A DNA stretch of 64,000 nt from Bacteroidales bacterium (GTDB taxonomy: Bacteria; Bacteroidota; Bacteroidia; Bacteroidales; GCA-2748055), in contig JAGLOO010000003.1 of NCBI GenBank assembly GCA_023138875.1, positions 1,498 through 65,497 of the forward strand, in the 5' to 3' direction. Position numbers and translations under genes: made by a program. Shown here piece by piece: positions 36,208 through 57,873 of this stretch. The notes below the pieces were generated by a model. That model was not told the origin of the DNA and did not search any database. It worked only from the letters and a program-made list of their open reading frames with translations. How positions within the stretch are numbered: the first letter of the stretch is position 1; each line of letters opens with the position of its first letter.

Positions 36208-37488
36208 ATGATCACACAAGATAATTTCAAGGAACTTCTATTGAAACTTGGCTTCTCCGAGAAGGGAGATATTTTCACCAAAAAGTTCAAAGAAGTAGAT
36301 GCCTACCTTAAGGTTGACTACAAGGCTGAAAAACTTATCTATCCTGAAGACAAGGGATTGACTATAAACGAAAGGCAAACCTGTAACTTCTCTCAAAAGG
36401 AAAACTTTGTTGTTTTTGAATGTGTTCATAGACTTTTTGAGAAGGGCTATAATCCACTACACATTGAACTTGAACCTAAATGGAAAGTTGGACATGGTGC
36501 CAGTGGTGGTCGCGCGGATATTATGGTGAAAGACAATTCAGGGAAGTCTTGACTCATAATTGAATGCAAGACAGAAGGAAAGGAATTTGAAGATGCCTGG
36601 AAAAAGACGTTAATAAATGGAGGTCAATTACTTTCCTATGTAAAACAAGCGGGAAGCACGCAATTTGTTTGTTTATACGCTTCTGACTATTTGGATAACA
36701 AAGTAGTGCCAAACTATTACTTAATCACATTAAAGGACAACAAAAGACTACTGGACGAACTTGCTGAAAAAACACCACTATCATATAAAAAAGCAAAAGG
36801 ATTAGACGTTGAAGATATTTTTAAAGCCTGGAAAGAAACCTATGCTCAGGACTACGCAACCAAAGGAATATTTGAAGATGATATTCCTGCTTATGAAATA
36901 GGAAAAACTAAGTACTCTCTTAAGGACTTGAGCACCATTAGCAGCAATGATATTCAAGGGAAGTATCACAAATTTGCTACCATATTGAGACAGCACAATG
37001 TGTCCGGTCGTGAAAATGCCTTTGACAAGCTGGTTAATTTGTTTCTGTGTAAAATAGTTGATGAAACCAACAACCCAAATGAACTCAAATTCTATTGGAA
37101 AGGAATCGCTTATGATGATCAATTTAGCTTAATCGACAGATTACAAAAGCTTTATCAGGACGGAATGCAACGATTTCTGGGAGAAGATGTGGCCTATATC
37201 AGTGCAGAACAGATCGATAAAGCCTTTGATTTTTTTAAAAACGATCCGGATGCAACCAAAGATACGATCAAGAAATATTTCAAAGAGCTCAAGTTCTTTA
37301 ATAACAACGACTTCGGGTTTATTGACGTCCATAATGAAAAGTTGTTTTATCAAAACACTGCCATTCTGCTGAAGATCGTCCAAATGTTACAGGATATAAG
37401 ATTGAAAACTGAAGACGTTTCCTTCGTCTTGCGGGAACCAATATTTACTATGTCATGTTTCTCAGAATTTGTGATGCCAACTGGTTGA
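36208..37488 (+). pseudogene. restriction-modification N6-adenine DNA methyltransferase (type I/IIG-like) N-terminal portion, with in-frame stop and 3' truncation
   Basis: ORFs 36208-36552 and 36691-37488 share one frame, separated by TGA at 36550-36552 (..KDNSGKS*LIIECKTEGKEF..). The family-like sequence runs to ..LLKIVQMLQDIRLKTED and then degenerates. No SAM-binding or NPPY/F region is present. Confidence 0.6.
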
Positions 37489-38648
37489 CTAAAAAGGGGG
37501 AGGGGTGAAAAATCCGCTTCCTTTAGCCGCCAGTGGGTACTCATAAGGCTGGTTTTTTCGCCTTCTTTGTCAACCTGGTAATAGACAGTCAGGATTGAAC
37601 CATCCTCAAGCTGGACAGATGCGGGATAGCCCAGATCAGAGTTTATAGCCGGGTTTATCATTATTTCTTTGCCTGTTTCCCATGTTTTACCACCATCCCT
37701 GCTAATGCAGGCCTTTTCTCCAAAAGGTTCCCGCCGAACGCCATAAGAGACCAAAAGCAAACCATTTTGTAATTGCATAAGATGGGGTGGGTAACCCCAT
37801 ATTCCAGTTTTATGGCTGGTGGTCCAGCTTTTACCCCCATCGTAGCTTTCCGACTGCCTCAGGTGTGACTGATTGTGGTCTGCTGGATTGTATCGAAACA
37901 TAGCCACAAGTTTGCCATCTGAGAGTTCAACCACATGGGGCTCATGGGCAAAAGTTACCTGGTCCTCACTGTCTAATGGAATGGTGGAAATGAGCTGCCA
38001 CGATTGTCCGTCATCGGTAGACTGCTCTACCCCGATTATTTTCTTATCATTCACATAGCCAGTGCCCACATAGAGCAATCTGCCATCGGATAGTTCTATT
38101 GGCTCATGAGGGGCAGAAACAACCTGTTTTACGGGTTCTTCCCAGGATTTACCACCATCCAGGGACCTCCTGGTCCAGTTACCTATCCAGTATTTTTTGG
38201 TTTCATCTCCCAGTTTATCTGCATGACGTTTCCAGGATGGATTCCTGTCATAAAACTTTTTTGTATCAAAAGCCAAAGAGGTAAACCAGTTTACCAGCAG
38301 GGTTCCCTTTGTTGTCTCAAGGATTCCTGCATCTCGGTCATCGAGCGGCGTATTGTTTATTGTCTCGGGATCGGTCCAGGTTTCGCCATGATCGGTACTG
38401 CGAATCATCTGGGTAATTCCAAACGGGCATACATGGGCATCGCGGTTACCGGAAAAGACCACCAGCAGTTCGCCCGACCTGGTTTTGGTAATACTTGGCC
38501 AGCCAATGTATTTGCCAGGCTGCTTGCAAATGACCCTGGTGCTAATTATATCTGCATAAAGGCCAGGTTTTTCAACACTGAGAACAGGTATCGAGGTGAA
38601 AAATAAAATGGTGAAAACAATCTTCAAGCATTTGTTAATCAGTAACAT
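37350..38648 (-). CDS. BNR/Asp-box sialidase-superfamily beta-propeller protein
   Basis: Five Asp-boxes: STDHGETW, SLDGGKSW, STDDGQSW, SYDGGKSW, SRDGGKTW. The start MLLINKCLKIVFTILFF at 38648 avoids overlap with the upstream gene. The last ~45 codons overlap the methylase fragment and look like read-through (see findings). Confidence 0.75.
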   Translation of the reverse strand: MLLINKCLKIVFTILFFTSIPVLSVEKPGLYADIISTRVICKQPGKYIGWPSITKTRSGELLVVFSGNRDAHVCPFGITQMIRSTDHGETWTDPETINNTPLDDRDAGILETTKGTLLVNWFTSLAFDTKKFYDRNPSWKRHADKLGDETKKYWIGNWTRRSLDGGKSWEEPVKQVVSAPHEPIELSDGRLLYVGTGYVNDKKIIGVEQSTDDGQSWQLISTIPLDSEDQVTFAHEPHVVELSDGKLVAMFRYNPADHNQSHLRQSESYDGGKSWTTSHKTGIWGYPPHLMQLQNGLLLVSYGVRREPFGEKACISRDGGKTWETGKEIMINPAINSDLGYPASVQLEDGSILTVYYQVDKEGEKTSLMSTHWRLKEADFSPLPLFSQPVGITNSEKHDIVNIGSRKTKETSSVFNLISCNIWTIFSRMAVF

Positions 38649-38680
38649 ATCGATATTAATTACAAATAAACGAATCCTGA

Positions 38681-39865
38681 CTATAGATGAAGCTTTTCTT
38701 TTTTGACCGGAAGTATATTCCGCACGATCCATTTCCTCATTTCCTGACCCTCCGGGCTTTGCTGCGGATAAGAGATAAAATCAAGTTTTATCCCCAGTTT
38801 TTGTTCGATTAAATGTGCTATTATTGGCCAGATAATTCCAATGTCACCAACTATTGGAATACTATTTTCCAGCCGGGCGAAACCAGACATTTCCATTCGA
38901 AATGGGATACTCATTAATTTTGTCTTTGGCATCCCTTTATCAATGGCCTGCTGTACAGTGCCGGATTCTTTTTCGAAATCACAGGCTTTTTTCAAATTCG
39001 GATCGAAATCAATGCGTATCAACGTCTTCCCTTTCAGACTGTACGTTGGATATCCTTCCCAATTTGACCAGATTCCATGACCGGTGTATGTTTCAAACGG
39101 TCCGTCATGGATTTCCTGGGTTAAGGCAACTGCAGACTCAATAATCACATCAGCGCTGCTCATCATTTCAGCAATTCTCGCTGTTCGTTCCATTATTGAA
39201 ATCGAATCTGCCAGAGCTGTACCAACCATTCCACCACCGATCAGTTGTGGAACTGTAACCAGACACGGAACGTCTTTCTTTACGGCAGCACCTAACATTG
39301 TGCGCTCATCTGCTCCTGCTCCGGCGATAACCTCAAAAGGGAGCCCTTTTGATTTTGCAATAAACAGAATCTCTTTTGCCAGATTCTCAGTTCGCAAACC
39401 CATCGGGTATGCCATATTTCCAGCCGCTTTGATGATCACATCACCTTCAAGTGACAGGGCTTTATCAATTATGCCGGTGTCGATGATCATCTCTTTTTTT
39501 AGCTGATCAAGCAATTCCGGAGACATTTTAGTGATTTCGAAAATCTCGCCACGTGGCAGTATGTTTCCAGGGAATCCCAATTTCTTACCATCAACTCTTT
39601 TAACTTCATCCAAAACACCTGCCATTTCATGCGCCACAACCGCCGAACTTGTTGTTACGCCATCAACGACTCCTTTATTAATAAGTTCAGCAATAAGCGT
39701 TGTAACGCCTTCATGAAGGTTGGGTCCGCTGCCTGTGACGACAACTACTTTACCCTGTTTTTTTTTAGCTTCGACAATACGATCTACAGCTCTGTCAACC
39801 ATTTCCCTGCCTGATGGCTGTAAATCATTATATAACTGTTTTATAAGCTCCCTGTTTGAATTCAT
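38681..39865 (-). CDS. conserved hypothetical protein, possibly deoxyhypusine-synthase-like Rossmann fold
   Basis: 394-aa ORF 11 nt downstream of kdsB. VVVVTGSGPNLHEGVTTLIAELINKGVVDGVTTSSAVVAHE loosely recalls the DHS-family pattern. The assignment is weak. Confidence 0.45.
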   Translation of the reverse strand: MNSNRELIKQLYNDLQPSGREMVDRAVDRIVEAKKKQGKVVVVTGSGPNLHEGVTTLIAELINKGVVDGVTTSSAVVAHEMAGVLDEVKRVDGKKLGFPGNILPRGEIFEITKMSPELLDQLKKEMIIDTGIIDKALSLEGDVIIKAAGNMAYPMGLRTENLAKEILFIAKSKGLPFEVIAGAGADERTMLGAAVKKDVPCLVTVPQLIGGGMVGTALADSISIMERTARIAEMMSSADVIIESAVALTQEIHDGPFETYTGHGIWSNWEGYPTYSLKGKTLIRIDFDPNLKKACDFEKESGTVQQAIDKGMPKTKLMSIPFRMEMSGFARLENSIPIVGDIGIIWPIIAHLIEQKLGIKLDFISYPQQSPEGQEMRKWIVRNILPVKKEKLHL

Positions 39866-39876: not shown

Positions 39877-40629
39877 TTAAGATAAATTCATTTCTCTGAT
39901 TATTTTCTCAACCCTGGCATGGTCAGCCGGTGTATCCACACTGACTCCTGCCGCATGTTTGCTTTTTGTTTCAATAACCTTAATCTTATAGCCATTCTCC
40001 AATACGCGTAGCTGCTCCAGCATTTCAATCTTTTCCAGATAGCTTTGCGGCATCTTCGATATTTTTAACAAAAAATCCTTGCGATAACCATATAATCCAA
40101 CATGTTCATAAACGTTCACAGCCACTTTATCCCGGGAATAAGGAATAAGCGATCTGGAAAAATAGAGTGCAAAATCATTTTCGTCAGCAACTACTTTAAC
40201 AACTGACGGATCTGAATAATCTTCTTCCCTGATTTTTATTTTGAGGGTTGACATCTGAACAGTTGTATCTTCCAGCATGGGTTGCACTGCTTCGTCAATC
40301 ATTTTAGGATCGAGAAGGGGTTGATCTCCCTGGATATTTACTACAATGTCAGTTTGAATTTTTTCCACTGCTTCGGCAATTCTATCTGTGCCGGATTGAT
40401 GGTCTGTGTTTGTCATAACCGCCTTCCCCCCAAATCCCTCTACACATTTCAAGACACGCGGGTCATCCACTGCTACAAAAAGCTGATCCAGCATCCGCGA
40501 TTGGCTAGCCCGTTCATACACCCACTGAATCATTGGCTTGCCCGCGATTTCTGCTATCACTTTCCCACGGAACCTCGACGAGCCATAACGGGCAGGGATT
40601 ACTCCGATAACATTTTGTTTTTTCAACAT
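39877..40629 (-). CDS. kdsB: 3-deoxy-manno-octulosonate cytidylyltransferase (CMP-Kdo synthetase)
   Basis: 250-aa ORF. VIGVIPARYGSSRFRGKVIAEIAGKPMIQWVYERA and the NIQGDQPLLDP motif are typical of KdsB. Confidence 0.85.
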   Translation of the reverse strand: MLKKQNVIGVIPARYGSSRFRGKVIAEIAGKPMIQWVYERASQSRMLDQLFVAVDDPRVLKCVEGFGGKAVMTNTDHQSGTDRIAEAVEKIQTDIVVNIQGDQPLLDPKMIDEAVQPMLEDTTVQMSTLKIKIREEDYSDPSVVKVVADENDFALYFSRSLIPYSRDKVAVNVYEHVGLYGYRKDFLLKISKMPQSYLEKIEMLEQLRVLENGYKIKVIETKSKHAAGVSVDTPADHARVEKIIREMNLS

Positions 40630-40639: not shown

Positions 40640-42895
40640 TTATTTAATAAATCCGTGATACCGCCCCATCCAGTATGCCAGCAGCCAGTAAACCCCGTCG
40701 CTTTCGGTATATCCCCCGTCTCCCTGAACAGCCTGCCAGGGATTATTATCCCAGCGCATTATTCCCCGTTCAGATGGGGGAACAAGACGGCTGGTTTGAA
40801 TATCTTCCAATATCGGGGAGCGTGTCAGGTCCAGATCTTCCCGCTGGCTGTTATCTATTCGCCAACGGATCAGGTCGAGCGGATTATCCTGCAATAGTCG
40901 TATGGACTTCTCCAGATTCAATTTGTTAGCAGCTAGTGCATTGTAGATAAAATAGAAATAAGGATTATCATCATTTTTAAGTGCATCATACCAGTTATCG
41001 AGGCTTCTGCAATACAGAGCCTGCAGGTCAGGGTCCTCTTCATATAGAATCAGGGCCGGATACGCAAGTGCAAGAAGTTCATCATCAATATATGTCCGCC
41101 AGGAGGGTAATGTGGTTTTCGCATTGACAATGTTGTTCCTATAATTGCTTTCATGGACCAATTTGTGATATTCTTCCTGGTAATATTCATTTCCACTAAC
41201 ATGGTAGGCCAGTTTAAGGTATGATAAAATCTCAACGGAGTTAATTCCCCTTTCACTGGCCCAATCAGGATCATCATTTAGAAATTCAGGTGCCCAGACT
41301 CCCCACTCAGTGTGGGTGCCGTCAATATCCATCAATACATAACCGTTATCAATAATATAGTCAACGATCCGCAGAACGTGTCCTTTTACATCTTCCTGCT
41401 CGCCGGGATCTGCAACAAGATCATAGTAAAAAAGATAACCATACATATGACCGGTAATCTCATCACTGCTTGTTCCTCTTTTCCAGAGCCATTTCCCATC
41501 GTCTGACAGAAGCCAGTGGTCCTCAACTTTTTTCTCCCGTGGTTCCCTGACAATCATATCTGCCCACTTACGGTCGGTAATGACCTCATTCGGATCTGCC
41601 ATCCTGGTCCATGTTGCAGGTATTACTGTTCTGGCAACAAACCCCTCTGTTTCGGTTACAGTCTGTAAAAATTTAAGTGCGTTAAAGGCTTTTGCTGCAT
41701 TCTCTTTAGCTTCCGGATCCTTTGTTACTGCATAGCGATATGATTCCATTGCGAGATACATACTTGTATACTGCCCGTCATTATCATCATCATTTGGTTC
41801 CCAGGTTGTCGTATCACCAGGTGTGCTGAATCTGCATTTCTCAACCAGAAAGGGCGCTCGAATATGTCTTCGGGCCATTACATCATAGTAATAATCTGCT
41901 TTTTGGGCAAGTGTCATCTGCTTCCTCTTTATCGCACTAACACCATTGGAAGTGGCAATCCAGGCAGTACCGTTTCCGTCAAATGCAATATCCCGGACTT
42001 TATCGCTTAATAACCAGCGCCGGCTGTGTCTTAATGACCAGCTACTACCGTTATACCTTGTAACTCCCAGATCTGTTCCGACCCACATTGAACCATCGGG
42101 CGCTTTTTGAACACACCGTACCCAGACATTTGGCAGGCCCTCTTTCGGGGTAAAACTCTTTATCCTTTTGTCATCTTTATATACCGTTACCCCGCCAAGT
42201 CCCCCAATCCAGAGCTCCCCTTCTTCCGCCCATGCCAGGCCGAAAATATTATCACTTAAGAGCTCTTCTTCATTCTGGAAGAGTACAGTTTTATGTACTG
42301 TTTGATGGTACAATCCTTTTCCGGTACCAAGATAATAGCCGCCACTTTGATCAGACAATAATTCCCGGATTGCCCGGGAATAGGGTATGTCTTCTTTAAT
42401 CCATGTTTTACCCTGTGATTTCCAGATACCCTCCGGACCGAGTGCGAGTATATTGCCGTCGATTTCGTTCACTACACCGATGGGGTTATCCGTAATTTCA
42501 ATTTTCTCTGTCTTATTATTGTCTGTTCTGTACAGACCATTCCAGGCAGCGATCCAAACGCTCCCTTTTGAATCAACAAACAGATCATTTATTGGCCCTT
42601 GATTGGTCGATTCAATCATCCCTTTCCATTCTTCTTTATCCTGATCTAAAACAAATAAACCAGCTTTAGTGCCTGCCCAGACCTGTCCGGAATGATCAAC
42701 AACGATGGTACGTATATCATTTCTTTCAGCCATAGAACCCAGCTCATACGCTTGATGAACCTCCTGGATAAAGGGCTTGTCTTCTATCCCCTGATTATCA
42801 TTCAGACCGGTATCATTTGCAGAAGTGTTTTGATCAGAACAGGATATCCCGGCCAGGAAAAATAGTATGATTAAATACCCGATATTTTTTTTCAT
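40640..42895 (-). CDS. lipoprotein with N-terminal two-component-regulator-type beta-propeller repeats and C-terminal uncharacterised (possibly alpha/alpha-toroid) domain
   Basis: 751-aa ORF with lipobox AGISC. Repeated ..G.VW.GT..GL.. propeller motifs. The C-terminal domain is shared with 44295-46484 (RHIR..F, DNDGQYTSMYLA, WLWKRGTSSDEITGH). Confidence 0.6.
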   Translation of the reverse strand: MKKNIGYLIILFFLAGISCSDQNTSANDTGLNDNQGIEDKPFIQEVHQAYELGSMAERNDIRTIVVDHSGQVWAGTKAGLFVLDQDKEEWKGMIESTNQGPINDLFVDSKGSVWIAAWNGLYRTDNNKTEKIEITDNPIGVVNEIDGNILALGPEGIWKSQGKTWIKEDIPYSRAIRELLSDQSGGYYLGTGKGLYHQTVHKTVLFQNEEELLSDNIFGLAWAEEGELWIGGLGGVTVYKDDKRIKSFTPKEGLPNVWVRCVQKAPDGSMWVGTDLGVTRYNGSSWSLRHSRRWLLSDKVRDIAFDGNGTAWIATSNGVSAIKRKQMTLAQKADYYYDVMARRHIRAPFLVEKCRFSTPGDTTTWEPNDDDNDGQYTSMYLAMESYRYAVTKDPEAKENAAKAFNALKFLQTVTETEGFVARTVIPATWTRMADPNEVITDRKWADMIVREPREKKVEDHWLLSDDGKWLWKRGTSSDEITGHMYGYLFYYDLVADPGEQEDVKGHVLRIVDYIIDNGYVLMDIDGTHTEWGVWAPEFLNDDPDWASERGINSVEILSYLKLAYHVSGNEYYQEEYHKLVHESNYRNNIVNAKTTLPSWRTYIDDELLALAYPALILYEEDPDLQALYCRSLDNWYDALKNDDNPYFYFIYNALAANKLNLEKSIRLLQDNPLDLIRWRIDNSQREDLDLTRSPILEDIQTSRLVPPSERGIMRWDNNPWQAVQGDGGYTESDGVYWLLAYWMGRYHGFIK

Positions 42896-42930: not shown

Positions 42931-44298
42931 TTACATACCTCTATCTATTTTTTCCCAATCCAGTTCCATAATAAAAATCTGCCTGAAATCATTTCCGTTA
43001 GCATCTTTAACTATAGTTCCCGATGTATCCTGTGTCGGAACAGGAATAATATATGCAAGCAGGTTTCCGTCCGGTGATACAACCAGTTGGTCTCTTACCA
43101 GCAGGTCATCACTTAATCTGATGGTTTTACCGAATCGGTACCTTGTTCCAAGGTAAGTTACAAATACATTTCCATCGCTGATACAAAACACCCAGTTACC
43201 TGACGGATGCCAGCGAATCGAGGAAACCGGTGAGTTAAGGCTGGTAACCCGGGCAGGTTGTTCATCCGATCCATCCGCTTTTGTGATAAACACGTGGCCA
43301 ATTCCATCTTCATCCCTGGCGGCAAAGGCAATTTTACTTCCATTGGGAGAGCCACGCACAATCCCGGTAACATTCATGCCATATGTGAGCCTGCGCACGA
43401 CAATACCTTCAGGCGGTTCGGGGTATTGATCCCGTGTGCCTGAGCGTGATGTGGCAATATCTATATCAGCCGGAATATCAGCCACAAACAGATCATTTTC
43501 ATAATCTATGCCATTTTGTGCCCTTACTGTCCCAATGAATGCACGCATAGTTCCTGCACTGTCTACCCATGAATCCCCATACGCTTTTTCAATCTCCCCG
43601 ACTTTTGATTGCCTCTTTTTAGCCGGCTTAAGGATCACCGAAAAATAGTGGGAGTATCCCTCAGGTGCATTTTCGTGAGGCTGCATAAATCCAATGGTCC
43701 GGTCGTAATCCCGGACAAGAAAATCATCATACGTAAAACCAATGCGCTTCCCGTTCCCGGAATACTCATGCCGGTGCGTACCACCACGATGTGTCCCCGG
43801 TGTTGTTTCTTCATCGGAGATATTACGCATATCCACTTTAACGGAGGTTTTTCTTCCTTCTCCATCTACTTCAATGGCAGTACGGTTACGAATGCTGTAG
43901 GTTCCACGGTCCTTCACTTCATCAAGAAAAGGTCCGTGAATGAATATCACTTTATTTTCGAACGGGTGAAAAGAGACGGCAGCAACTCCCGGAGCAGCCT
44001 CCTCTCCTGTAATAGATGGGGGATCCCATAGAACAGTTTCTACTCCTGTTGATATTTCTACCTTCTCAATGGATTTTGAATTTGCCAGGTTCTCATTATA
44101 AATTGTTCCCCGCGTATCATAGCAAAGGAACCATCCATCCGCAGAGAAGTTGTCATTGTTGTCCAGCGCATGGGTTTTTGATGAAAATGTTATCTGCTTT
44201 TCTTCCATTGGAATAGATCCATTTCTATTTTGATCACATGATTGTATAAACCCTGCAAACACTGAAATACTGATAGGTATTATTATCAGTATTTTCAT
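42931..44298 (-). CDS. YidR-like DUF3748 / TolB-type beta-propeller protein
   Basis: 455-aa ORF. KQITF, FIHGP, RGGTHRHEY, FTYDD, AYGDSWV, RRLTY and WHPSGNW match my recollection of E. coli YidR/DUF3748. Confidence 0.6.
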   Translation of the reverse strand: MKILIIIPISISVFAGFIQSCDQNRNGSIPMEEKQITFSSKTHALDNNDNFSADGWFLCYDTRGTIYNENLANSKSIEKVEISTGVETVLWDPPSITGEEAAPGVAAVSFHPFENKVIFIHGPFLDEVKDRGTYSIRNRTAIEVDGEGRKTSVKVDMRNISDEETTPGTHRGGTHRHEYSGNGKRIGFTYDDFLVRDYDRTIGFMQPHENAPEGYSHYFSVILKPAKKRQSKVGEIEKAYGDSWVDSAGTMRAFIGTVRAQNGIDYENDLFVADIPADIDIATSRSGTRDQYPEPPEGIVVRRLTYGMNVTGIVRGSPNGSKIAFAARDEDGIGHVFITKADGSDEQPARVTSLNSPVSSIRWHPSGNWVFCISDGNVFVTYLGTRYRFGKTIRLSDDLLVRDQLVVSPDGNLLAYIIPVPTQDTSGTIVKDANGNDFRQIFIMELDWEKIDRGM

Positions 44299-50776: not shown

Positions 50777-51998
50777 CGTTGTTTTCTTTTACCCACTCAG
50801 CTGAAAAGGCAACGTGCTTGATTGTTTTATTCTCAGTTAAATGAAAGGAGTAGGTGACGTGAATTATTCCGTCTTTAGCTTGAATAACAGAAGGGTAGGA
50901 GAAAGAACCTTCTCCCGGGCCTCTTTTTTCCAAATGGCGTGTCCATCTCCATGTTTCTCCTTCATCATCTGAAAGACTGACTGCTAAGCTGTGCCTTCCA
51001 TTTTCAACATCATTGTATACCATTATCCAATCACCATTTACCAGCGAAATAGCTTCGACACTGGTACCCGGATTAGGGATGTGTGTATCTTCGGTAATAC
51101 TCCACTCAAATCCATTGTCTTTCGAGATGCTCTTTATCACCCTGCCCGGTTTGTCACCATTATCGCGCATATAGGCAACCAGATCTCCATTCTTTTTCAG
51201 AACCAGACTGGGCTGTACATTTCCACGCCCTACTATTGGTAAACCGGGTTGCCAGGATTTGCCACTATCATCTGATATAGCTATGAGTGAAAGGTTGTAT
51301 CCATCGGAATATAGTGGCAGGAGAATTCTTCCATCAGGGAGCTGGAGGGGGTGGGTTCTGGTCATCCATCCGGTTTCTCTCTTTTTCGGATCCCTGGCAG
51401 CATCATATATCATTCTTTCATAGAGTGGGGCGTACTCGGCCCAGGCAAGTTCCGGAGTGTTTGACTCAAGGAACCTGTTTTTGATTGTCTCAGCAAACTC
51501 TTCACCCGGTTTCAACAAAATTATATCCTGCCATTCCCAATCCGGGGCTCCGCTTTTTTCATAGTTGGAAGAAATTCTTGATTTCAGGATAGAGGTCTCC
51601 CATCGATTGGCCTGTACAACAATCCAGAAAAGATGCAGTCGATTTTCCTTATCAATAAACAGTATTGGATTGCAATCGGGATATCCCGGTGTATCGGCGA
51701 GTATAAATGTTCTACTCCACCCGGATGCTCCTTTTTTTAATCGGGACCCTTTAACCACAACATCGTTGGCTGTACGCTCACCTGATCCTTCGAACCAGCA
51801 AGCAAGTAGATCACCGCCAGGTAATTCAACAATGGAGCTGCTGTGTACATGCAGATCCTGGGATGGAAAAATGTATTCAGATTTAAATTGGAGCCTGCTG
51901 GAATTGGATGCAGCTGTTTGCGCTACAACTGTGATGCAGCTAACATAGAAAACAAAGGGAATAAATATAGTTGAGATTGATCTCTTAAAACCTGTCAT
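50766..51998 (-). CDS. BNR_2-type sialidase-like beta-propeller protein
   Basis: SEYIFPSQDLHVHSSSIVELPGGDLLACWFEGSGE plus Asp-boxes SDDSGKSW, SKDNGFEW and SDDEGETW. I saw no FRIP motif. Confidence 0.7.
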   Translation of the reverse strand: MTGFKRSISTIFIPFVFYVSCITVVAQTAASNSSRLQFKSEYIFPSQDLHVHSSSIVELPGGDLLACWFEGSGERTANDVVVKGSRLKKGASGWSRTFILADTPGYPDCNPILFIDKENRLHLFWIVVQANRWETSILKSRISSNYEKSGAPDWEWQDIILLKPGEEFAETIKNRFLESNTPELAWAEYAPLYERMIYDAARDPKKRETGWMTRTHPLQLPDGRILLPLYSDGYNLSLIAISDDSGKSWQPGLPIVGRGNVQPSLVLKKNGDLVAYMRDNGDKPGRVIKSISKDNGFEWSITEDTHIPNPGTSVEAISLVNGDWIMVYNDVENGRHSLAVSLSDDEGETWRWTRHLEKRGPGEGSFSYPSVIQAKDGIIHVTYSFHLTENKTIKHVAFSAEWVKENNDEV

Positions 51999-53277
51999 GA
52001 GCTCCTGGCATTTCAGAATGAATGTTAATTGAAACCGTAGTGATGATCACAAAAGTGATCAGAAGAGTTATTATTATTATCCCCCAGCGCTTCCATGTTT
52101 CATCGCTGGTATTTCTCCCCGGAAAATCAGTTGTCTTTCGCAGTCCGACATACCAGATGGTAAAAATGAATGCCACTATAAACAGATAGAGTGATTCTGA
52201 ATACTTGAAACTGAATGGCTTGTAGAAAGTGCCCAACCTGATGTAAGCAAAAAAGTTATAATGAATGGTTGTAATAAAAAGCATCACAGGAAGGCCAAAC
52301 TTCACCAATTTGTCATCTTGGGAAGAATAATGGTTCCAGATCATAATAGCCAGGATGGCAAAGACGGGTATCGAAATCCCGGCAACCAGGAGTTGTCTGG
52401 AAGCATATTGTACAGGATTTGCAATATTCAGTTTCTCTGCAAAATTAATTAGACTTTCCGTGGAAAAGCCATTGAAATAATTGGTTGCAGGGATGAATGC
52501 AAACAGGAATATGATAGCAATCCAATTGGCCGTTCCGGATGGCTTCACAGACTTCGGCCATTCGCGTGTAAGTACAGCATAGATCATGCCCAATCCTCCA
52601 AAAAACCCAAGTGTAAATTCCATGACATTCCACCAGTTGTATTGGATTTCTGCGGAACTCCCAACTGTTTGTATGAAATTACCAAATGCAAAACCAAAGC
52701 CTGCTCCCAATGCAGCATAGGATGCAACCCTTACTGCCCTTTTGAAATTGTTTCGATATAAATACCAGCCCAGCGCAAGGGCTGCACCCAGGCATCCGGC
52801 CCACAGCTCAGAGCGCGGTGGGGTCATAAACCACTCCATCTGGTAGATGAGAAGCCCCCATACCAGGAACCCTCCCACAAACATCTCTATGATGAGGCCT
52901 GACCATTTCGGTTTATTCTCTTCACTTGATTCAAGGCCAAGTCCAAATAAGCCACCGCCGATAAAACCATAGAGGCCACCTATGACAGCGAGCATGACAT
53001 AACCGTAAAGGGAATTTACAAAGGATATCGACTGGCAATATCCGATCACAATCCCGTAGCTCATCATGCCTCCGGCTCCCCAGCCAATTGCCCCCAGTGC
53101 TGCTAATGCAGGCGCCCTTAGTGCCCAATCTTTTCTTTTTGATACGACCAATACCGCTAATGCACCCATGGCTCCAGCCCAGGAAGCACCCCATTCATGG
53201 CCAAAATGGCCGCGCATTGCCCAGCCGAGGCCTAAAACTATTGCTGCGAAAAAGAGATTGGTTTTTTTTGTCATCAA
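51985..53277 (-). CDS. polytopic integral membrane protein of unknown family
   Basis: 430-aa ORF with about 10 or more Gly/aromatic-rich hydrophobic segments. It overlaps the next BNR gene by 14 nt. Confidence 0.6.
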   Translation of the reverse strand: MMTKKTNLFFAAIVLGLGWAMRGHFGHEWGASWAGAMGALAVLVVSKRKDWALRAPALAALGAIGWGAGGMMSYGIVIGYCQSISFVNSLYGYVMLAVIGGLYGFIGGGLFGLGLESSEENKPKWSGLIIEMFVGGFLVWGLLIYQMEWFMTPPRSELWAGCLGAALALGWYLYRNNFKRAVRVASYAALGAGFGFAFGNFIQTVGSSAEIQYNWWNVMEFTLGFFGGLGMIYAVLTREWPKSVKPSGTANWIAIIFLFAFIPATNYFNGFSTESLINFAEKLNIANPVQYASRQLLVAGISIPVFAILAIMIWNHYSSQDDKLVKFGLPVMLFITTIHYNFFAYIRLGTFYKPFSFKYSESLYLFIVAFIFTIWYVGLRKTTDFPGRNTSDETWKRWGIIIITLLITFVIITTVSINIHSEMPGAHDRF

Positions 53278-53285: not shown

Positions 53286-54392
53286 TTATTCATCAGGCCA
53301 GGCACCATTTAAAATGGCTTTGGCTTCAATCCTGGATGGATCAACCACAACATATTTAATCACTTTTCTGTTCCAGGTATAAGTGATATGAATTTTACCA
53401 TCTTTGGTTTGGATTACTGCAGGATAGGAGTATTCAGCATCCTGGTCCGGATCGTTCTCCACCAAAGCTGCTGCACTCCATTTGATCCCGTCCTCAGAAA
53501 TGGCCATATTCAGTTTATTTCTTGAACCCCAGGTTTCAGAAGGGATGATGTGATTATAAACCAGGATATGCCTGCCATCTTTCAGGGTAACTGCATCGGT
53601 ACCCGAATTGGGATTCGGCAACACTGTAGCTTCCATGAGGCTCCAGGTTTTTCCGCCATCTTCCGACCAGCTTTGAGAAATTACCCCCTGTTTTGTCCTG
53701 CACAACACCTGCATCTCTCCGCCTGGATGTAAAAGCACACTTGGCTGAATGGCATCAAACTCAATTCCATCATTAATCGGGCCAACAACGTCCCACGTTT
53801 GACCCATATCTTTTGATAATTCAAAGTGAACCCTCCATTTATCTTTAGACTCACTGCTTGAAGGGCATAAAATCGTTCCGTCTTCCAATTGAACCGGTTT
53901 ATTCTTAATAGGCCCCAGCAGATGATCAAAAGGTCCCTTTCCCATTTTAGTCGGTTTTGACCAGGTCAATCCTTCGTCATCGGAGGTGATGATCATGCCC
54001 CACCATTGCCTCGGGTCGGGACCCACTTTGTAGAATAACATTAACGGCCCCTCTCTGGGTTGGAAAAGTACCGGATTCCAGGTTGGATAGCGCTTTCTGC
54101 TATTCTGTACACCATTTGCTACTTCCTGAGGACTCGTCCATTTTCCATCTATCAAACGGCTAACCCAGATACCGACATCGGGATTTTTTTCACTGGTTCC
54201 GGCAAACCATGCTGCAACTAACCCATGCTCAGTCTCTGCTATGGTAGATGCATGGCAACTGGGAAACGTAACATCCTCTGTCTGAAAGATAAATTCAGAC
54301 TTAATAATAGGATTTGCATCTCCTGAAGGTCCTTTCACGAAAGTGCAGTTTGAAAGTAGCATCATTGTTAATAGATTAAATAGAAGTTTCAT
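53286..54392 (-). CDS. BNR_2-type sialidase-like beta-propeller protein
   Basis: SEFIFQTEDVTFPSCHASTIAETEHGLVAAWFAGTSE plus Asp-boxes SDDEGLTW, SKDMGQTW and SEDGGKTW. Confidence 0.7.
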   Translation of the reverse strand: MKLLFNLLTMMLLSNCTFVKGPSGDANPIIKSEFIFQTEDVTFPSCHASTIAETEHGLVAAWFAGTSEKNPDVGIWVSRLIDGKWTSPQEVANGVQNSRKRYPTWNPVLFQPREGPLMLFYKVGPDPRQWWGMIITSDDEGLTWSKPTKMGKGPFDHLLGPIKNKPVQLEDGTILCPSSSESKDKWRVHFELSKDMGQTWDVVGPINDGIEFDAIQPSVLLHPGGEMQVLCRTKQGVISQSWSEDGGKTWSLMEATVLPNPNSGTDAVTLKDGRHILVYNHIIPSETWGSRNKLNMAISEDGIKWSAAALVENDPDQDAEYSYPAVIQTKDGKIHITYTWNRKVIKYVVVDPSRIEAKAILNGAWPDE

Positions 54393-54454: not shown

Positions 54455-55951
54455 TCAGTGGTTTGAACGTTTCGTCTCTACAATTTTGTTAGTAATTACA
54501 AAGAAAAGCGCAAGAAGCACCAATCCCAGTGTACTCATAGCACCAATGATGATGGGGTCTATTTTGCTCTCCATCCAGGCAAATTTATCAGGCAAATCCC
54601 GCAGGAATGATCCCCAGATGATAATTAGAATGCTGAAAATAACCGAAATGATTCCTTGTTTCTGTGTGATTTTAATGTTGAAAATCCCAAGCAGGAATAG
54701 TCCCAGTATTCCTCCACCAAAAATTCCGGCAATGATCCACCATATATCGAGTGCACTCTTCGCATTTATCAGCAAGAGTGCAACAGCAATTCCGGCAATC
54801 CCCCAGATCACTGTCGTAATACGCAAGAAGATAACGCTGTTGCTTTCGGAAGCGGAAGGTTTTAAATATTTCTTGTAATAGTCGACAAAAAGCACGGTCG
54901 CCGAACAGTTCAGGGCAGAATCAATGGTACTCATTGAAGCCGCAAGTATGGCTGCAATAATGAGTCCTTTTACACCAACCGGCAACTGTGTGGCAATAAA
55001 ATGCGGGAAAACCTGGTCTCCCTTGGTAATGGCTTCTCCAAGCATATGATCCGGTCCTGAATAGAAGGCAAACAGAGTGGTTCCGATGTATAAAAAGAGG
55101 GCTGTTAGTGGTAAATAAATTAGCATGGCAATCCATACGGACTTTTTCGCTTTTTTCTCATCCGGTACAGAACAATATTTTTGGGTGTAGTTCTGATCTG
55201 CAACCAGGTTCCTGATATTCTCTGAAACACCATATATAATCATAACCCATATCGTACGGCTACTCAGTGATAAGGTCGTTTCCCCGAGGCTGAACTTCTT
55301 AGCATCAAAAGCATTTTGAATAAGATAATCAGGACGGGCAAAAACATCTTTTGTCAGCAGATACCCAATGAATATGATCCCTCCTATCATGATTACTGAC
55401 TGCATGACATCAGTCCAGATGACTGCCTCCATTCCTCCCATCAGGGTGTAAACAATGGTTACAATACCAATCACAATGATGAGCATGCGGATATCCACTG
55501 CGATAAATGAACTTAACAGGAGTGATGAAAGATAAAGGATTACGGCCGTACGGCCTATCATAAACAGCACAAATGACAGGGAGGCATAAATACTTGCCCA
55601 GGCACCAATTTTCTCTTCAAGGTATCCGTAGACCGAGATAATATTTTTTTTCCGATAGTATGGGACTACATATTTTGTCACAAACCACACAACCGGAATG
55701 GCTGAAAGTGCAAATATCAGTGGATGCCAGTTGGAATCAAATGCTTTTCCCGGGACAGCAATGTAGGAAATACTACTTGTATATGCACTCATCACAGCCA
55801 ATCCCGCAGCCCAGGCAGGAATGCCCCGGCCGGCAACCATAAACTGTTCTGAGGTTTTGGTTTTTCTAAAAAAATAGACACCCATCCCCACAAGGATAAG
55901 TCCGTATACGATCAGGATTGATGTGTCAATGGCACCAAGCTGAAAACCCAT
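54455..55951 (-). CDS. sodium:solute symporter (SSF) family transporter
   Basis: 498-aa ORF with ~13 TM segments and an SSF-like organisation. It starts 1 nt after the upstream lyase gene ends. Confidence 0.85.
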   Translation of the reverse strand: MGFQLGAIDTSILIVYGLILVGMGVYFFRKTKTSEQFMVAGRGIPAWAAGLAVMSAYTSSISYIAVPGKAFDSNWHPLIFALSAIPVVWFVTKYVVPYYRKKNIISVYGYLEEKIGAWASIYASLSFVLFMIGRTAVILYLSSLLLSSFIAVDIRMLIIVIGIVTIVYTLMGGMEAVIWTDVMQSVIMIGGIIFIGYLLTKDVFARPDYLIQNAFDAKKFSLGETTLSLSSRTIWVMIIYGVSENIRNLVADQNYTQKYCSVPDEKKAKKSVWIAMLIYLPLTALFLYIGTTLFAFYSGPDHMLGEAITKGDQVFPHFIATQLPVGVKGLIIAAILAASMSTIDSALNCSATVLFVDYYKKYLKPSASESNSVIFLRITTVIWGIAGIAVALLLINAKSALDIWWIIAGIFGGGILGLFLLGIFNIKITQKQGIISVIFSILIIIWGSFLRDLPDKFAWMESKIDPIIIGAMSTLGLVLLALFFVITNKIVETKRSNH

Positions 55952-55952: not shown

Positions 55953-56858
55953 TTAAGGCATTATAGTGATTTTTTCAATATATTTTTCAATCTGTTTCCG
56001 CTCTGCAGGTTTGAACCTGTGAAGCGGAGGGGCCATATAGTCATTACAAATGCCCATTACAGATAATCCACATTTTGTTCCCTTTAAAAATCTGGATGTA
56101 TGTTTACCGACCTGATAGATCGTATGATATAGCATCAATACTTTTTTGCGGAGTTTTGAAATTGTTTCAAGATCATTTGCTACCGACGCATTATACAGGT
56201 CTACAAACATTCTCGGGAACATGTTCGCTCCTCCTGCGACTGCTCCATGCCCGCCATACATGATTGTTTCAGGTAAGAACAGCTCCGTTCCGGTAATGAT
56301 TGAGAAATCCGGAGAATCTTTGAATTCTTCGATAAGAGAATATAGATATAACATATCTCCCGAACTGTCTTTGATACCCACGGCACCCAGTTCTTTTGCT
56401 CTTTTAACTATCTCCACAGTCAGGTGTATTTTGGTATGACTTGGCATGTTATATATCAAAAAGGGCAGTGGTAATCTGGGAGCCAATGTCTCAAAATACT
56501 CAATCATCTCTTCATGTGCAACTGGGAAATAGTAAGGAGGAGCGACAACTACGGCATCTGCACTAACACGTTGAGCATATTCAGAAATTTCCAGTGATCC
56601 TGCGAAAGAAGTATCTGTTATGCCTACCAGTACAGGAATTCTTTTATTTACCAGTTCGCATGTTTTTTTAATAAATTCTTTCTGAAGTTGGTGGCTGAGA
56701 GAAGGAGCCTCCCCATTTGTGCCTAAAATAAACAGAGCATGTACACCTCCTGACACCTGATGCTCAATTATTCTTTGTAATCCGGGAATGTCAAGCTCAT
56801 TATAATTATTCAGGGGAGTAACTAAAGGAGGAATAATTCCTTTTAGTGGTAGGTTCAT
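55953..56858 (-). CDS. DHDPS/N-acetylneuraminate-lyase family class I aldolase
   Basis: 301-aa ORF. IIPPLVTPL, GTNGEAPSLS, YNMP and GIKDSSGD (Schiff-base Lys region). Confidence 0.8.
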   Translation of the reverse strand: MNLPLKGIIPPLVTPLNNYNELDIPGLQRIIEHQVSGGVHALFILGTNGEAPSLSHQLQKEFIKKTCELVNKRIPVLVGITDTSFAGSLEISEYAQRVSADAVVVAPPYYFPVAHEEMIEYFETLAPRLPLPFLIYNMPSHTKIHLTVEIVKRAKELGAVGIKDSSGDMLYLYSLIEEFKDSPDFSIITGTELFLPETIMYGGHGAVAGGANMFPRMFVDLYNASVANDLETISKLRKKVLMLYHTIYQVGKHTSRFLKGTKCGLSVMGICNDYMAPPLHRFKPAERKQIEKYIEKITIMP

Positions 56859-57021
56859 GTGGCTGCTGTTTTAGTTTTTCAAGAAACCTGATGTGAATGT
56901 GTAACAAAGGAATATATATTGAATGCATAATACTTCTGCTTTTTTAGTAAATTAACATTATATTTTAACCAATACTAGGTTATATATTTATTTTCTTGTA
57001 ACTTGGGTTAAGATTCTTAGT

Positions 57022-57873
57022 ATGGAGTATGTTTTTGAAAAGATTCAAGTACCCAATAAGCATTCGTTCATATCACGAGAAATTCAACTTGCAGAACGAT
57101 TGCCTAAAATTCATTCGCACAAAAATTTTGAGCTAAACTATATTGTTTCCGGATCTGGCAGAAGAATTGTGGGTGACAATATATCCAGCTTTGAAAGAGG
57201 TGACCTGGTTCTACTGGGTCCGGAAGTGCCTCATTCCTGGGAAATTCTTGAATGCCAGAAAAACACGCTTCCCTCTTGTATTACAACACACTTTTATGAA
57301 AATATTATCAGTTCCGATTTTTTTAATATACCTGAACTTGAAGATGTAGAGAATTTGTTGAAACGGGCAAATAGAGGGATCTCGTTTAAAGGAAGCAAGA
57401 TTAAGAGAATCAGGGCCAAACTGGAACGATTGGCGAAGCTGGAAGGGCTGGAAAGTTACATTGAACTATTAAATGTTTTCAATGACTTGCTTCAGGTAGA
57501 AACGTTTGAATATCTGGCAAGCGCTATTGATCTGCCTGAAAAGTTTACAAAAGATCTGGACCGGATCAATAACGTATACGAATATGTGTTCCTGAACATT
57601 GAAGAGGGCGTAAAACTTGAGGATGTAGCAGACCTTCTGCATATGGCACCCGGTTCATTTTGCAGGTATTTTAAGAAAAAAACCAACCGCACTTTTACAC
57701 AGTATGTGAAAGGTGTTCGAATTGGTATTGCAGCAAAGATGCTTATCGAAACCGAAAAATCCATTACTCAGATTTGTTATGACAGTGGATACAACAACCT
57801 TGCAAATTTTAACCACTATTTCAAAAGTCTAATGAATAAAACACCGTCTGAATACAGAAAGAATTTCAGATGA
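57022..57873 (+). CDS. AraC-family transcriptional regulator (cupin sensor + HTH)
   Basis: 283-aa ORF divergent from the lyase operon. The C-terminus FCRYFKKKTNRTFTQYV...ICYDSGYNNLANFNHYFK is the AraC HTH pair. Confidence 0.85.
   Translation: MEYVFEKIQVPNKHSFISREIQLAERLPKIHSHKNFELNYIVSGSGRRIVGDNISSFERGDLVLLGPEVPHSWEILECQKNTLPSCITTHFYENIISSDFFNIPELEDVENLLKRANRGISFKGSKIKRIRAKLERLAKLEGLESYIELLNVFNDLLQVETFEYLASAIDLPEKFTKDLDRINNVYEYVFLNIEEGVKLEDVADLLHMAPGSFCRYFKKKTNRTFTQYVKGVRIGIAAKMLIETEKSITQICYDSGYNNLANFNHYFKSLMNKTPSEYRKNFR

Follow-up and report, generated by a model that had tools for sequence, protein, structure and literature searches.

A Bacteroidales gene array joining sialidase-fold proteins, a SiaT-like symporter and a pyruvate aldolase: a candidate system for Kdo release, uptake and cleavage

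Kdo, a sugar acid with eight carbons, occurs in bacterial LPS and in some plant and algal walls. A Kdo aldolase (EC 4.1.2.23) was reportedly described by Ghalambor and Heath in 1966. This activity is listed as an orphan, with no gene on record (PMC1940265), and papers from 2023-2025 still cite it only via the 1966 work (PMC10619137, PMC12199768). In E. coli, free Kdo is salvaged via the sialic-acid carrier and CMP-Kdo synthase (PMC10619137). The C-terminus of B. thetaiotaomicron BT1013 is reported to be an experimentally validated Kdo hydrolase that frees the sugar from chain C of RG-II (PMC13501991). In Francisella, Helicobacter and Legionella, the overlapping genes of KdhAB (KdoH1-KdoH2) encode a sialidase-like protein and an integral membrane protein (PMC3573668, PMC4402001). 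Finally, the nan/sia clusters combine a GH33 sialidase, a SiaT or NanT carrier and the aldolase NanA. Here, we compare these systems with a gene array of a Bacteroidales bacterium.

The array lies in a window of 64,000 nucleotides, the whole stretch of DNA that was analysed, from a 99.6%-complete MAG of cold-seep sediment. It runs from 56858 to 37350 on the minus strand and consists of 14 tightly packed, co-directional genes, with gaps of -14 to +62 nt, facing a divergent plus-strand regulator of the AraC family (57022-57873). This regulator combines a cupin sensor with an HTH_18 domain (Pfam HTH_18 79 bits, AraC_binding and Cupin_2 also matched); in 11 of 80 related loci, an orthologue likewise diverges from the aldolase, with a median identity of 61%. 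A preliminary description had recognised sialidase-superfamily propellers, a DHDPS/NAL-family aldolase, an SSS transporter and the divergent regulator. All the open reading frames it named are in place, and their coordinates and Pfam scores confirm these assignments, but the array is larger than it described, with 14 genes that include the only kdsB of the genome. A GH78 gene mentioned as lying upstream is indeed present (23335-26736, Pfam match), yet about 10 kb separate it from the array. The hint of RG-II taken from this gene found no support, as the genome has neither RG-II signature enzymes nor an RG-II locus and the MAG is of cold-seep origin. The substrate is therefore more likely to be bacterial or algal than plant pectin. 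On the other side, a cluster with a KDG kinase and Eda adjoins the array (60095-63895). Judging from sequence, there is a slightly better than even chance that the array serves Kdo release, uptake and cleavage, and possibly salvage.

A link to Kdo comes from BNR368 (53286-54392, minus strand), an exported lipoprotein with a six-bladed sialidase fold (Pfam BNR_2 317.4 bits, lipobox LLSNC). Across the whole domain, it shares 41% identity (E 1e-82) with the C-terminal BNR_2 domain of a protein of 1300 aa in which GH78 and BNR_2 are fused. This fusion is not BT1013 itself, and its likeness to BT1013 is one of architecture and synteny only. It sits in an RG-II PUL, with a GH140 apiosidase on one side and a BT_1020-like gene on the other. 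The two proteins have in common a set of motifs unlike those of canonical sialidases: CH[AG][ST], E[KR]NPD, WNPVLF, GPIKNKP, IQPS and LCRT. BNR368 is thus a stand-alone homologue of the BT1013-type domain, but it is a lipoprotein without the GH78 fusion, it comes from a genome without an RG-II PUL, and its gene is coupled to those of a transporter and an aldolase, partners with which the RG-II PUL has not been described. In its active site, His47 replaces the FRIP arginine and Gln216 the catalytic glutamate, whereas Arg232 and Tyr323 are retained. The AF2 model (pLDDT 85) matches bacterial sialidases in Foldseek with a TM of 0.73. Hence, the best of the propellers has a sialidase fold, and its active-site layout is modified but recognisable.

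Two further sialidase-fold proteins are encoded in the array. BNR410 (50766-51998, minus strand; BNR_2 173.3 bits) is exported and also has a histidine at the FRIP position; it shares 28% identity with BNR368 and, over its full length, 25% with the BT1013-type domain. In Draconibacterium (L020) its homologue is fused to a YdjC deacetylase domain. BNR460 (37350-38648, minus strand; BNR_2 81.8 bits when scored over 37350-38732) is more divergent, with 26% identity to BNR368 across 233 residues, and its 3' end extends into island DNA. Its orthologues follow Prop729 in locus L005 and the DS-like gene in L095. Two of the propellers had been assigned to the BNR_2 type, but all three exceed the BNR_2 cut-off. 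The failure to see a canonical FRIP motif in them was well founded: the FRIP arginine is missing from all three, the site reading PSCHASTI in BNR368, LHVHSSSIVEL in BNR410 and IGWPSITK in BNR460, where GWPS stands at the position of the sialidase RIPS. BNR410 overlaps by 14 nt the gene of Memb430 (51985-53277, minus strand), a polytopic membrane protein without Pfam or NCBIfam match; the two are translationally coupled and the pair is kept in L005 and L094. By its gene layout, this conserved pair can be likened to KdhAB. Yet the two genes come in the opposite order, Memb430, with 430 aa and many helices, is larger, and KdhAB remodels the LPS of the cell itself and is unlinked to a transporter or an aldolase.

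The candidate Kdo importer, SSS498 (54455-55951, minus strand; Pfam SSF 156.6 bits), is a SiaT-like Na+/solute symporter. Its best PDB match is the SiaT of P. mirabilis (5NV9, 240 bits, against 121 for the next). Using the residue roles established for SiaT (PMC5931594), we found that the carboxylate-binding residues Ser60, Thr63 and Arg135 are conserved as S, S and R, whereas F78, G81 and F243 of the N-acetyl pocket have become P, F and G.

The candidate Kdo aldolase, ALD301 (55953-56858, minus strand; Pfam DHDPS 182.9 bits), is a cytoplasmic class I pyruvate aldolase with the motif YNMPSHTK and the Schiff-base lysine in GIKDSS. It scores below every NCBIfam cut-off, with about 168-169 bits for dapA (cut-off 206), 107 for NAL (281) and 93 for nanA (382). 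Among PDB entries it matches 4XKY best (339 bits) and YagE next (139 bits). In a tree, its clade, which includes 4XKY, is separate from DapA, NanA and YagE. The clade shows the motif YN[MIFA]PxxTK (YNMPTHTK in 4XKY) and lacks the DapA arginine, and ALD301 has a histidine at the position of DapA Arg138. A true dapA is encoded elsewhere in the genome (324 bits, cut-off 206). The dapA score of ALD301, the separate bona fide dapA, the histidine at Arg138 and the tree rule out that it is DapA; clustering with bona fide DapA, which would have spoken against the preliminary description, was thus not observed. Similarly, 4XKY was deposited as a B. thetaiotaomicron 'dihydrodipicolinate synthase', a name that implies lysine biosynthesis, but its clade lacks the arginine that binds aspartate semialdehyde and the genomes carry a separate true dapA. 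In gut Bacteroides, the 4XKY orthologue heads a LacI-aldolase-SSS-DUF386-FucI operon, in which DUF386 is NanQ-like.

We then asked how these genes associate in other genomes. The BNR368 type and an SSS transporter occur together in 38 of the 80 loci, from at least six phyla, and both are joined by the aldolase in 19; the remaining 61 BNR368-type loci have no aldolase within 10 kb. In 121 genomes of the order, the aldolase is carried by six, five of which also encode a protein of the BNR368 type (Fisher p = 7e-6). Aldolase and symporter recur across phyla, often with the BNR368 type, and in each of the eight aldolase contexts that we examined beyond the 80 loci, the aldolase is followed by a SiaT-like SSS. 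Some related loci contain sulfatases, as algal glycan loci do, and BNR368-type genes are found in PULs with SusC/D, GH78 and sulfatases. FucI, which is also a D-arabinose isomerase, is a recurrent companion. In one genome (G006), aldolase and symporter are accompanied by FucI and an FGGY kinase. Chitinophagales, Flavobacteriaceae and an unclassified Bacteroidota MAG combine FucI and the kinase with the BNR368 type and the symporter, with no aldolase in the 10-kb flanks, and in Cyclobacteriaceae a protein weakly similar to the C-terminal domain of FucI (26 bits, below the Pfam cut-off) lies between two BNR genes and the aldolase. The set of isomerase, FGGY kinase and NanQ-like partners fits the cleavage of Kdo to pyruvate and D-arabinose. 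In our genome, FucI is located in a fucose-type operon, and we found no isomerase or kinase linked to the array within the window.

The other genes of the array are likewise all on the minus strand. Next to BNR410, unk205 (50159-50776) encodes an exported 205-aa protein without Pfam or NCBIfam match, which we did not find in the related arrays examined. CerLike433 (48845-50146) is exported and resembles the N-terminal domain of neutral ceramidases (Pfam Ceramidase_alk 102 bits; PDB 2ZWS, E 5e-13, and 4WGK, E 1e-11), possibly acting as an amidase; its homologue adjoins the aldolase in a sister species (G131, locus L091). Metallophos779 (46499-48838) is an exported calcineurin-like/purple-acid-type phosphoesterase (Pfam Metallophos, Pur_ac_phosph_N). 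Prop729 (44295-46484), also exported, pairs an N-terminal beta-propeller with a helical domain at the C-terminus (AF2 model pLDDT 77). In this model the propeller is similar to the domains with which Bacteroides hybrid two-component systems sense glycans; the helical domain gave no match with the AF2 model and the protein no PDB sequence match. Prop729 lies beside the module in six of the 80 loci, and also in sister genomes. Its lipoprotein paralogue Prop751 (40640-42895; Reg_prop repeats) is 28% identical to it. Between the two lies a DUF3748 (YidR-like) beta-propeller lipoprotein (42931-44298; Pfam DUF3748 63 bits, lipobox IQSC), whose gene adjoins kdsB or the DS-like gene in L094 and L095. 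The CMP-Kdo synthetase gene kdsB (39877-40629; NCBIfam TIGR00466 224.6 bits, cut-off 155) is a single match in the genome, and in two sister species (G131 and G132) it is surrounded by the same accessory gene set. Its position in the array could be due to chance inheritance within one genus. DSlike394 (38681-39865) is a cytoplasmic Rossmann-type protein with weak deoxyhypusine-synthase-like matches and no PDB match, present in four of 19 genomes of the genus. Three of its five copies directly follow kdsB (this genome, L091 and L095); the one in L094 follows DUF3748, without kdsB, and the one in L093 is at a contig end, its neighbour unseen.

The homologies, the residue patterns, the order of the genes and their co-occurrence are observed directly. 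They can be assembled into a scheme, in which we infer all the enzymatic activities and the identity of the sugar. The periplasm-facing BNR368 would free terminal Kdo from a glycoconjugate, while BNR410, with the coupled Memb430, and BNR460 would probably release it from other linkages. The ceramidase-like protein, the metallophosphoesterase, the two propeller-plus-helical proteins and the DUF3748 protein would probably strip the Kdo-bearing substrate. Free Kdo would enter through SSS498, and ALD301 would cleave it by Schiff-base chemistry to pyruvate and D-arabinose, the latter passing on through the FucI and FGGY kinase encoded elsewhere in the genome. Alternatively, the co-located KdsB might turn imported Kdo into CMP-Kdo, to be reused in LPS. 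Sensing probably falls to the divergent AraC protein. The preliminary description had proposed an ulosonic acid other than Neu5Ac; the BT1013-type homology, the lost N-acetyl pocket and the D-arabinose-type isomerase and kinase partners support this idea and narrow it to Kdo. Against Kdo catabolism, B. thetaiotaomicron, which carries the 4XKY aldolase, is reported to secrete Kdo on RG-II (bioRxiv 10.64898/2026.03.13.711244).

Might the same genes serve another sugar? Ordinary Neu5Ac utilisation is suggested by the likeness to nan/sia clusters, with the classical trio of an exported sialidase-fold exo-hydrolase, a SiaT-like SSS with its carboxylate clamp and a cytoplasmic class I pyruvate aldolase of the DHDPS/NAL superfamily, plus a local regulator. 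Yet we regard it as very improbable: the FRIP arginine and catalytic glutamate are replaced by His and Gln, the aldolase belongs to a separate clade and scores far below the NAL and nanA cut-offs, the carrier has lost the N-acetyl pocket, and nanE, nanK, an epimerase and nagA/B were not found in the array, the partners elsewhere being FucI and an FGGY kinase. That the mechanism is the same but the sugar another ulosonic acid (Dha, Kdn, 5-O-methyl-Kdo or a nonulosonic acid of bacteria, of pseudaminic or legionaminic type) is a less remote prospect, though still an unlikely one. Dha, Kdn and modified Kdo are compatible with the sequences. The three core proteins are related to sialic-acid enzymes at the family level only, the three differing propellers suggest several linkages or sugars, and the sulfatases of some related loci recall algal glycans. 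But the closest relative of BNR368 with experimental backing is a Kdo hydrolase, the known Dha hydrolase belongs to a different family absent from the genome (GH143, the N-terminal propeller of BT_1020), and neither Kdn, which would yield mannose, nor Dha, which would yield a C4 uronate, explains the recurrent FucI and FGGY partners.

It is also unlikely, to about the same degree, that the substrate is not ulosonic, the BNR proteins being other glycosidases, lyases or binding proteins while aldolase and symporter work independently on a KDG/KDX/KDF-type acid or in a fucose-like route. Sialidase folds are also found in GH93 arabinanases and GH145 rhamnosidases, two canonical catalytic residues are replaced, and FucI serves mainly in fucose metabolism. 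YagE, the nearest characterised aldolase beyond the clade, acts on KDG/KDX, and the KDG-kinase and Eda cluster is next door. This reading is at odds with a transporter that is specifically SiaT-like (at most 121 bits for other SSS structures), with the co-localisation of hydrolase, transporter and aldolase across phyla and the co-occurrence of hydrolase and aldolase, and with the NanQ-type anomerase homologue of the Bacteroides operon; nor is any dehydrogenase, lactonase or dehydratase yielding a KDG-type acid conserved with the triad. Alternatively, membrane-associated Kdo hydrolases might remove the outer Kdo from newly made LPS, which is the role of KdhAB in Francisella and Helicobacter, and the freed sugar would be taken back up and recycled via KdsB. 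The sole kdsB inside the array and the KdhAB-like overlap of Memb430 and BNR410 (PMC3573668, PMC4402001) are in line with this, as is a Bacteroidota relative with a single-Kdo core and no known hydrolase gene (PMC3342949). We find such a role in the cell's own envelope improbable, since the accessory genes are patchy in the genus, as the DS-like gene illustrates, BNR368-type genes occur in PULs, and the aldolase and AraC sensor suggest inducible catabolism.

Hence, if Kdo is the substrate, this array would supply candidate genes for Kdo uptake and for Kdo aldolase, an activity that we found assigned to no gene.

We lean towards reading the array at 56858 to 37350, on protein similarities, as a predicted Kdo-directed module for release, uptake and cleavage. 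This narrows the proposal of the preliminary description, a catabolic locus for an ulosonic acid other than Neu5Ac, which is supported and sharpened to Kdo by homology to a protein of the type of BT1013 (the GH78-BNR_2 fusion of the Bacteroides thetaiotaomicron RG-II PUL), by a SiaT-like carrier and by FucI and FGGY partners. The module is a variant of the known nan-type module and not a new kind of system. The array has 14 genes, all on the minus strand with gaps of -14 to +62 nt, and an AraC regulator (57022-57873) faces it. In order, the genes encode a DHDPS-family aldolase (ALD301), an SSS transporter (SSS498), a BNR_2 lipoprotein (BNR368), a polytopic membrane protein (Memb430), a second BNR_2 protein (BNR410), an orphan of 205 aa, a neutral-ceramidase-like protein (CerLike433), a metallophosphoesterase (Metallophos779), a propeller-plus-helical protein (Prop729), a DUF3748 lipoprotein, a paralogue of Prop729 (Prop751), KdsB, a cytoplasmic protein of 394 aa with only weak deoxyhypusine-synthase/Rossmann similarity (DSlike394, 38681-39865) and a third BNR_2 protein (BNR460). 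The source genome is a Bacteroidota MAG from a cold-seep metagenome, 99.6% complete in 87 contigs, with T9SS sorting domains and SusC/D genes. The coordinates first assigned to this region were all correct. Three propellers are indeed present, but the restriction of the BNR_2 type to two of them falls, since all three pass the BNR_2 threshold; the upstream GH78 is real (23335-26736), at about 10 kb from the array. Scans for sigma-70 promoters and terminators are uninformative for Bacteroidota: the hits were about as numerous as in shuffled sequence, and no terminator fell between genes.

The aldolase is not a dihydrodipicolinate synthase. ALD301 scores 168.8 bits against the DapA model TIGR00674, under the cut-off of 206.15, and reads YNMPSHTK where DapA carries its Arg138 motif (YNxPxRT). 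The genome also has a separate true dapA (contig C42, 324 bits, YNVPGRT). Scores, missing arginine, separate dapA and tree position together rule out DapA. In a maximum-likelihood tree, the clade of ALD301 stands apart from E. coli YagE, E. coli NanA, which lies on a distant branch, and two DapAs that pair with support of 99/96. Clustering of the lyase with DapA, named beforehand as a result that would count against the proposal, was thus seen neither in scores nor in motif or tree. Sialic acid lyase models also score low (107 bits for NCBIfam NAL, cut-off 281; 93 bits for nanA, cut-off 382). The nearest solved structure is 4XKY of B. thetaiotaomicron, at 339 bits, followed by YagE at 139 bits. 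We compared ALD301, its homologues from 19 related loci, one gut Bacteroides orthologue and 4XKY: all 22 keep the Schiff-base lysine and the motif YN[MIFA]PxxTK, and at the position of the arginine with which DapA binds aspartate semialdehyde they carry H, C, L, M or Y. The name under which 4XKY was deposited, dihydrodipicolinate synthase, is probably wrong. A protein 99% identical to 4XKY sits on a contig of only 4 kb, and the genome of one comparison locus (L010) matches 4XKY at DapA level only (28% identity). ALD301 is a candidate Kdo aldolase, which would cleave Kdo to pyruvate and D-arabinose.

The best structural match of the transporter SSS498 is the Proteus mirabilis sialic acid transporter SiaT (5NV9; 240 bits over residues 5-472), and other SSS structures score at most 121 bits. 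In SiaT the carboxylate is held by Ser60, Thr63 and Arg135, the glycerol tail by Gln82 and Thr58, and the N-acetyl pocket is formed by Phe78, Gly81 and Phe243 (PMC5931594). SSS498 keeps the carboxylate clamp (S, S and R), but lacks the contacts of SiaT to the N-acetyl group (P, F and G) and to the glycerol tail (A and Y). This is the residue pattern expected for a carrier of an acidic keto-sugar other than Neu5Ac.

The propellers depart from sialidases at particular active-site positions. BNR368 (BNR_2, 317 bits) has the six-bladed sialidase fold in its AlphaFold model (pLDDT 85), with Foldseek TM scores of 0.70-0.74 to bacterial and human sialidases (8GN6, 1EUR, 7LBU) at about 18% identity. 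It thus shares the Asp-box propeller of canonical GH33 exo-sialidases. Yet, where these have the FRIP arginine and a catalytic glutamate partnering the nucleophilic tyrosine, the BNR368 family has an invariant His47 (in CHAST) and, in a profile alignment to the anhydrosialidase 4X47, an invariant Gln216. The second arginine of the triad (Arg232), Asp72 and Tyr323 are retained. The family holds 55-60% identity across Bacteroidota, Planctomycetota, Verrucomicrobiota, Acidobacteriota and Gemmatimonadota. BNR410 is a paralogue of BNR368 (28% identity) that also has histidine at the FRIP position, and the more remote BNR460 has tryptophan there, so that the canonical FRIP arginine, which the preliminary description had failed to see, is absent from all three. 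The genes of Memb430 and BNR410 overlap by 14 nt and the pair is conserved. [quoted passage not shown] In a Draconibacterium MAG (L020:15574-17718) a BNR410-type propeller is fused to a YdjC-like carbohydrate deacetylase domain, and in related Prolixibacteraceae loci the module is followed by a stand-alone YdjC and a glycerophosphodiester phosphodiesterase. The model of Prop729 has a propeller resembling the glycan-sensing domains of Bacteroides hybrid two-component systems; Foldseek matched the model by this propeller alone and found nothing for its helical domain, and PDB sequence searches with Prop729 and with DSlike394 gave nothing usable.

One pointer to Kdo is a fusion protein. In a PF13088 screen of 121 genomes of the order, BNR368-type domains score at least 270 bits and every other BNR_2 protein at most 165. 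One BNR368-type domain lies in a 1300-aa frame, behind a GH78 domain, and this fusion (L089) is flanked by a GH140 apiosidase and by a gene resembling BT_1020 (GH143/GH142), so the region is an RG-II PUL arranged like BT1012-BT1013. BNR368 and the fusion share 41% identity (E 1e-82) between residues 29-351 of the former and 936-1299 of the latter, which covers the domain end to end, and the two have a common motif set. The other propellers are less close to this domain (25% identity for BNR410; 25% over part of the length for BNR460). The C-terminus of BT1013 is listed as an experimentally validated Kdo hydrolase acting on chain C of RG-II, as yet without a CAZy family (2026 review, PMC13501991). 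The predicted link between BNR368 and BT1013 rests on the compared fusion, which is BT1013-like by architecture and synteny. The same RG-II PUL (of G020) encodes a 446-aa protein without a Pfam family (L089:12656-13996), a 49%-identical homologue of which adjoins the BNR368-type gene of G078 (L099, C10); it is a possible further partner of Kdo-type hydrolases. RG-II itself is an unlikely substrate in the source organism, which comes from a cold seep and lacks the RG-II signature enzymes: its genome has no BT_1020-like gene and no GH78-BNR fusion, and the only apiosidase-like match is 23% identical. This absence and the deep-sediment habitat make a bacterial or algal source of Kdo likelier than pectin.

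Gene neighbourhoods suggest the fate of the cleaved sugar. Of 80 loci anchored on BNR368 homologues, 38 have a SiaT-like SSS transporter within 10 kb, 19 the aldolase and 11 the AraC regulator. The triad is seen in Prolixibacteraceae, Cyclobacteriaceae, Flavobacteriaceae, Saprospiraceae, Verrucomicrobiota, Pirellulaceae and Gemmatimonadaceae. Six of the 121 sampled genomes have a member of the aldolase clade, ten have the BNR368 type and five have both (Fisher p = 7e-6). In the one aldolase carrier without the BNR368 type (G006), the aldolase operon includes other BNR_2 genes. In each of the eight aldolase contexts examined outside the 80 loci, the symporter comes after the aldolase. In gut Bacteroides of the ovatus group (L085-L087) an orthologue of 4XKY heads a LacI-aldolase-SSS-DUF386-FucI operon, behind which lie either SusC/D or sulfatases and a BNR-like gene; its DUF386 protein shares 30% identity with the Neu5Ac anomerase NanQ of E. 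coli. In G006 (L098, C17:12001-32000) an FGGY kinase is divergent from LacI-aldolase-SSS-FucI-BNR_2 (BT_1020-like)-SusC-SusD. This is a compact PUL in a 2.2-Mb Bacteroidales genome, with a fusion of FGE-sulfatase and BNR_2 domains further along. A Chitinophagales MAG, Arenibacter (Flavobacteriaceae) and an unclassified Bacteroidota MAG combine the BNR368 type and SSS with FucI and an FGGY kinase, two of the three also with AraC; no aldolase was found within their 10-kb flanks. In Cyclobacteriaceae the order is BNR, FG-GAP, a protein like the FucI C-terminal domain (weakly so, at 26 bits, below the Pfam cut-off), BNR, aldolase, SSS. L-fucose isomerase doubles as D-arabinose isomerase in the D-arabinose route of E. 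coli, and Kdo is the common ulosonic acid that gives D-arabinose on aldol cleavage; Kdn would give mannose, Neu5Ac ManNAc and Dha a C4 uronate. The downstream enzymes that recur with the aldolase-symporter pair would thus fit D-arabinose.

The array also includes kdsB, the single copy of the genome (224.6 bits against TIGR00466, cut-off 155.2). The DSlike394 gene that follows is accessory, with five copies in 4 of the 19 genomes of the genus. Three of the five directly follow kdsB (source genome, G131 and G132); of the two copies in G121, one follows DUF3748 without kdsB and the other lies at a contig end, with its neighbour out of view. All four copies with visible neighbours sit amid the aldolase, ceramidase-like, Prop729, DUF3748, Memb430-BNR410 and BNR460 genes in shuffled order, and such constant membership despite shuffling argues for functional linkage. 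The protein may be Kdo-related. E. coli takes up free Kdo through NanT and activates it with CMP-Kdo synthase (PMC10619137), a precedent that makes a Kdo salvage branch plausible here.

The rest of the window offers further context. A second PUL (465-16359) has SusC/SusD (8432-13591), a BD-FAE esterase, a fusion of YdjC and 3-keto-disaccharide hydrolase, GH31, an AXE1-like esterase, a PhoPQ-related hydrolase, a second ceramidase-like gene (7054-8316) and a Metallophos-PA14 protein (13608-15521). Ceramidase-like and phosphoesterase genes are therefore paired twice in the window, in the array and in this PUL, which suggests an acylated, phosphorylated glycoconjugate as substrate; one might speculate that the exported proteins of both types would suit such a molecule. 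A truncated DHDPS-family ORF at 19890-20354 (154 aa), which covers only profile positions 2-157 of 289, probably represents a gene remnant. Placed between a GH141-like protein that has a DUF1349 tail and a 644-aa protein, it is immediately upstream of an FAD_oxidored gene (18266-19873). Beside the AraC gene, at 58263-63895, are a second SSS transporter, PanF-like and on the minus strand, and a plus-strand cluster of an SDR (mannonate/KduD-like), a 2-hydroxyacid dehydrogenase, a KDG-type kinase and an Eda-like aldolase. This plus-strand cluster is a classical 2-keto-3-deoxy-gluconate route adjoining the candidate Kdo module. The genome has one intact FucI, in an operon with LacI and a FucP-like MFS carrier, and a second copy, recovered by blast as three pieces only, in different frames, and apparently a pseudogene (the two copies are at C55:6298-8085 and C5:70781-71801).

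Several observations are at odds with a role in Kdo use. The aldolase is not nearby in 61 of the 80 BNR368 loci, the FucI of the source genome sits in a fucose-type operon with its FucP-like carrier, and the linkage of kdsB to the array is confined to one genus. B. thetaiotaomicron, despite its 4XKY gene, is reported to secrete Kdo on RG-II, and Kdo pathways in gut microbes have been called unconfirmed (bioRxiv 10.64898/2026.03.13.711244). The substrate might not be an ulosonic acid, which we consider unlikely. That the same module serves another ulosonic acid is similarly doubtful: the FucI and FGGY partners fit D-arabinose. A role in envelope remodelling and recycling seems improbable. Neu5Ac utilisation shares with the array the SiaT-like carrier and the propeller fold and is the least credible of all; a canonical cluster is rejected on the sub-cut-off scores for NAL and nanA, the replacement of the FRIP arginine and glutamate and the loss of the SiaT N-acetyl pocket.

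The Kdo reading can be extended, at a low probability, to the habitat: the array and the PUL at 465-16359 might dismantle Kdo-bearing lipid glycoconjugates of dead cold-seep bacteria. The substrate would be the LPS inner core with lipid A, or capsules with a Kdo linker. An amidase-like enzyme, a phosphoesterase and three enzymes of Kdo-hydrolase type would strip the molecule, one hydrolase working with a membrane partner in the manner of KdhAB. The freed Kdo would then be shared between the Kdo aldolase and direct CMP-Kdo salvage via the genome's sole kdsB, which would be co-transcribed with the array.

Kdo is a constituent of almost every Gram-negative LPS, of many capsules, of pectic RG-II and of the scales of green algae. 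A 2007 listing of orphan activities includes Kdo aldolase (EC 4.1.2.23; PMC1940265), and papers of 2023 and 2025 cite it through 1966 enzymology only, with none annotated (PMC10619137, PMC12199768). We found no gene on record for a route of Kdo uptake and cleavage. A widespread hydrolase-symporter-aldolase module, such as this one spanning Bacteroidota, Planctomycetota, Verrucomicrobiota, Acidobacteriota and Gemmatimonadota, would fill this gap, and ALD301 would, if the reading is true, be the first gene assigned to the orphan activity. The proteins are small and soluble, or readily complemented, which opens the hypothesis to direct testing. Of interest are the candidate genes that it offers for an orphan enzyme and the widespread set of mis-annotated families. 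The name "dihydrodipicolinate synthase" would be corrected for 4XKY and for thousands of annotations, as would "sialidase/neuraminidase" for the His-type BNR_2 family. The module would further be relevant to gut cross-feeding with RG-II-derived Kdo and to the recycling of bacterial necromass in sediments.
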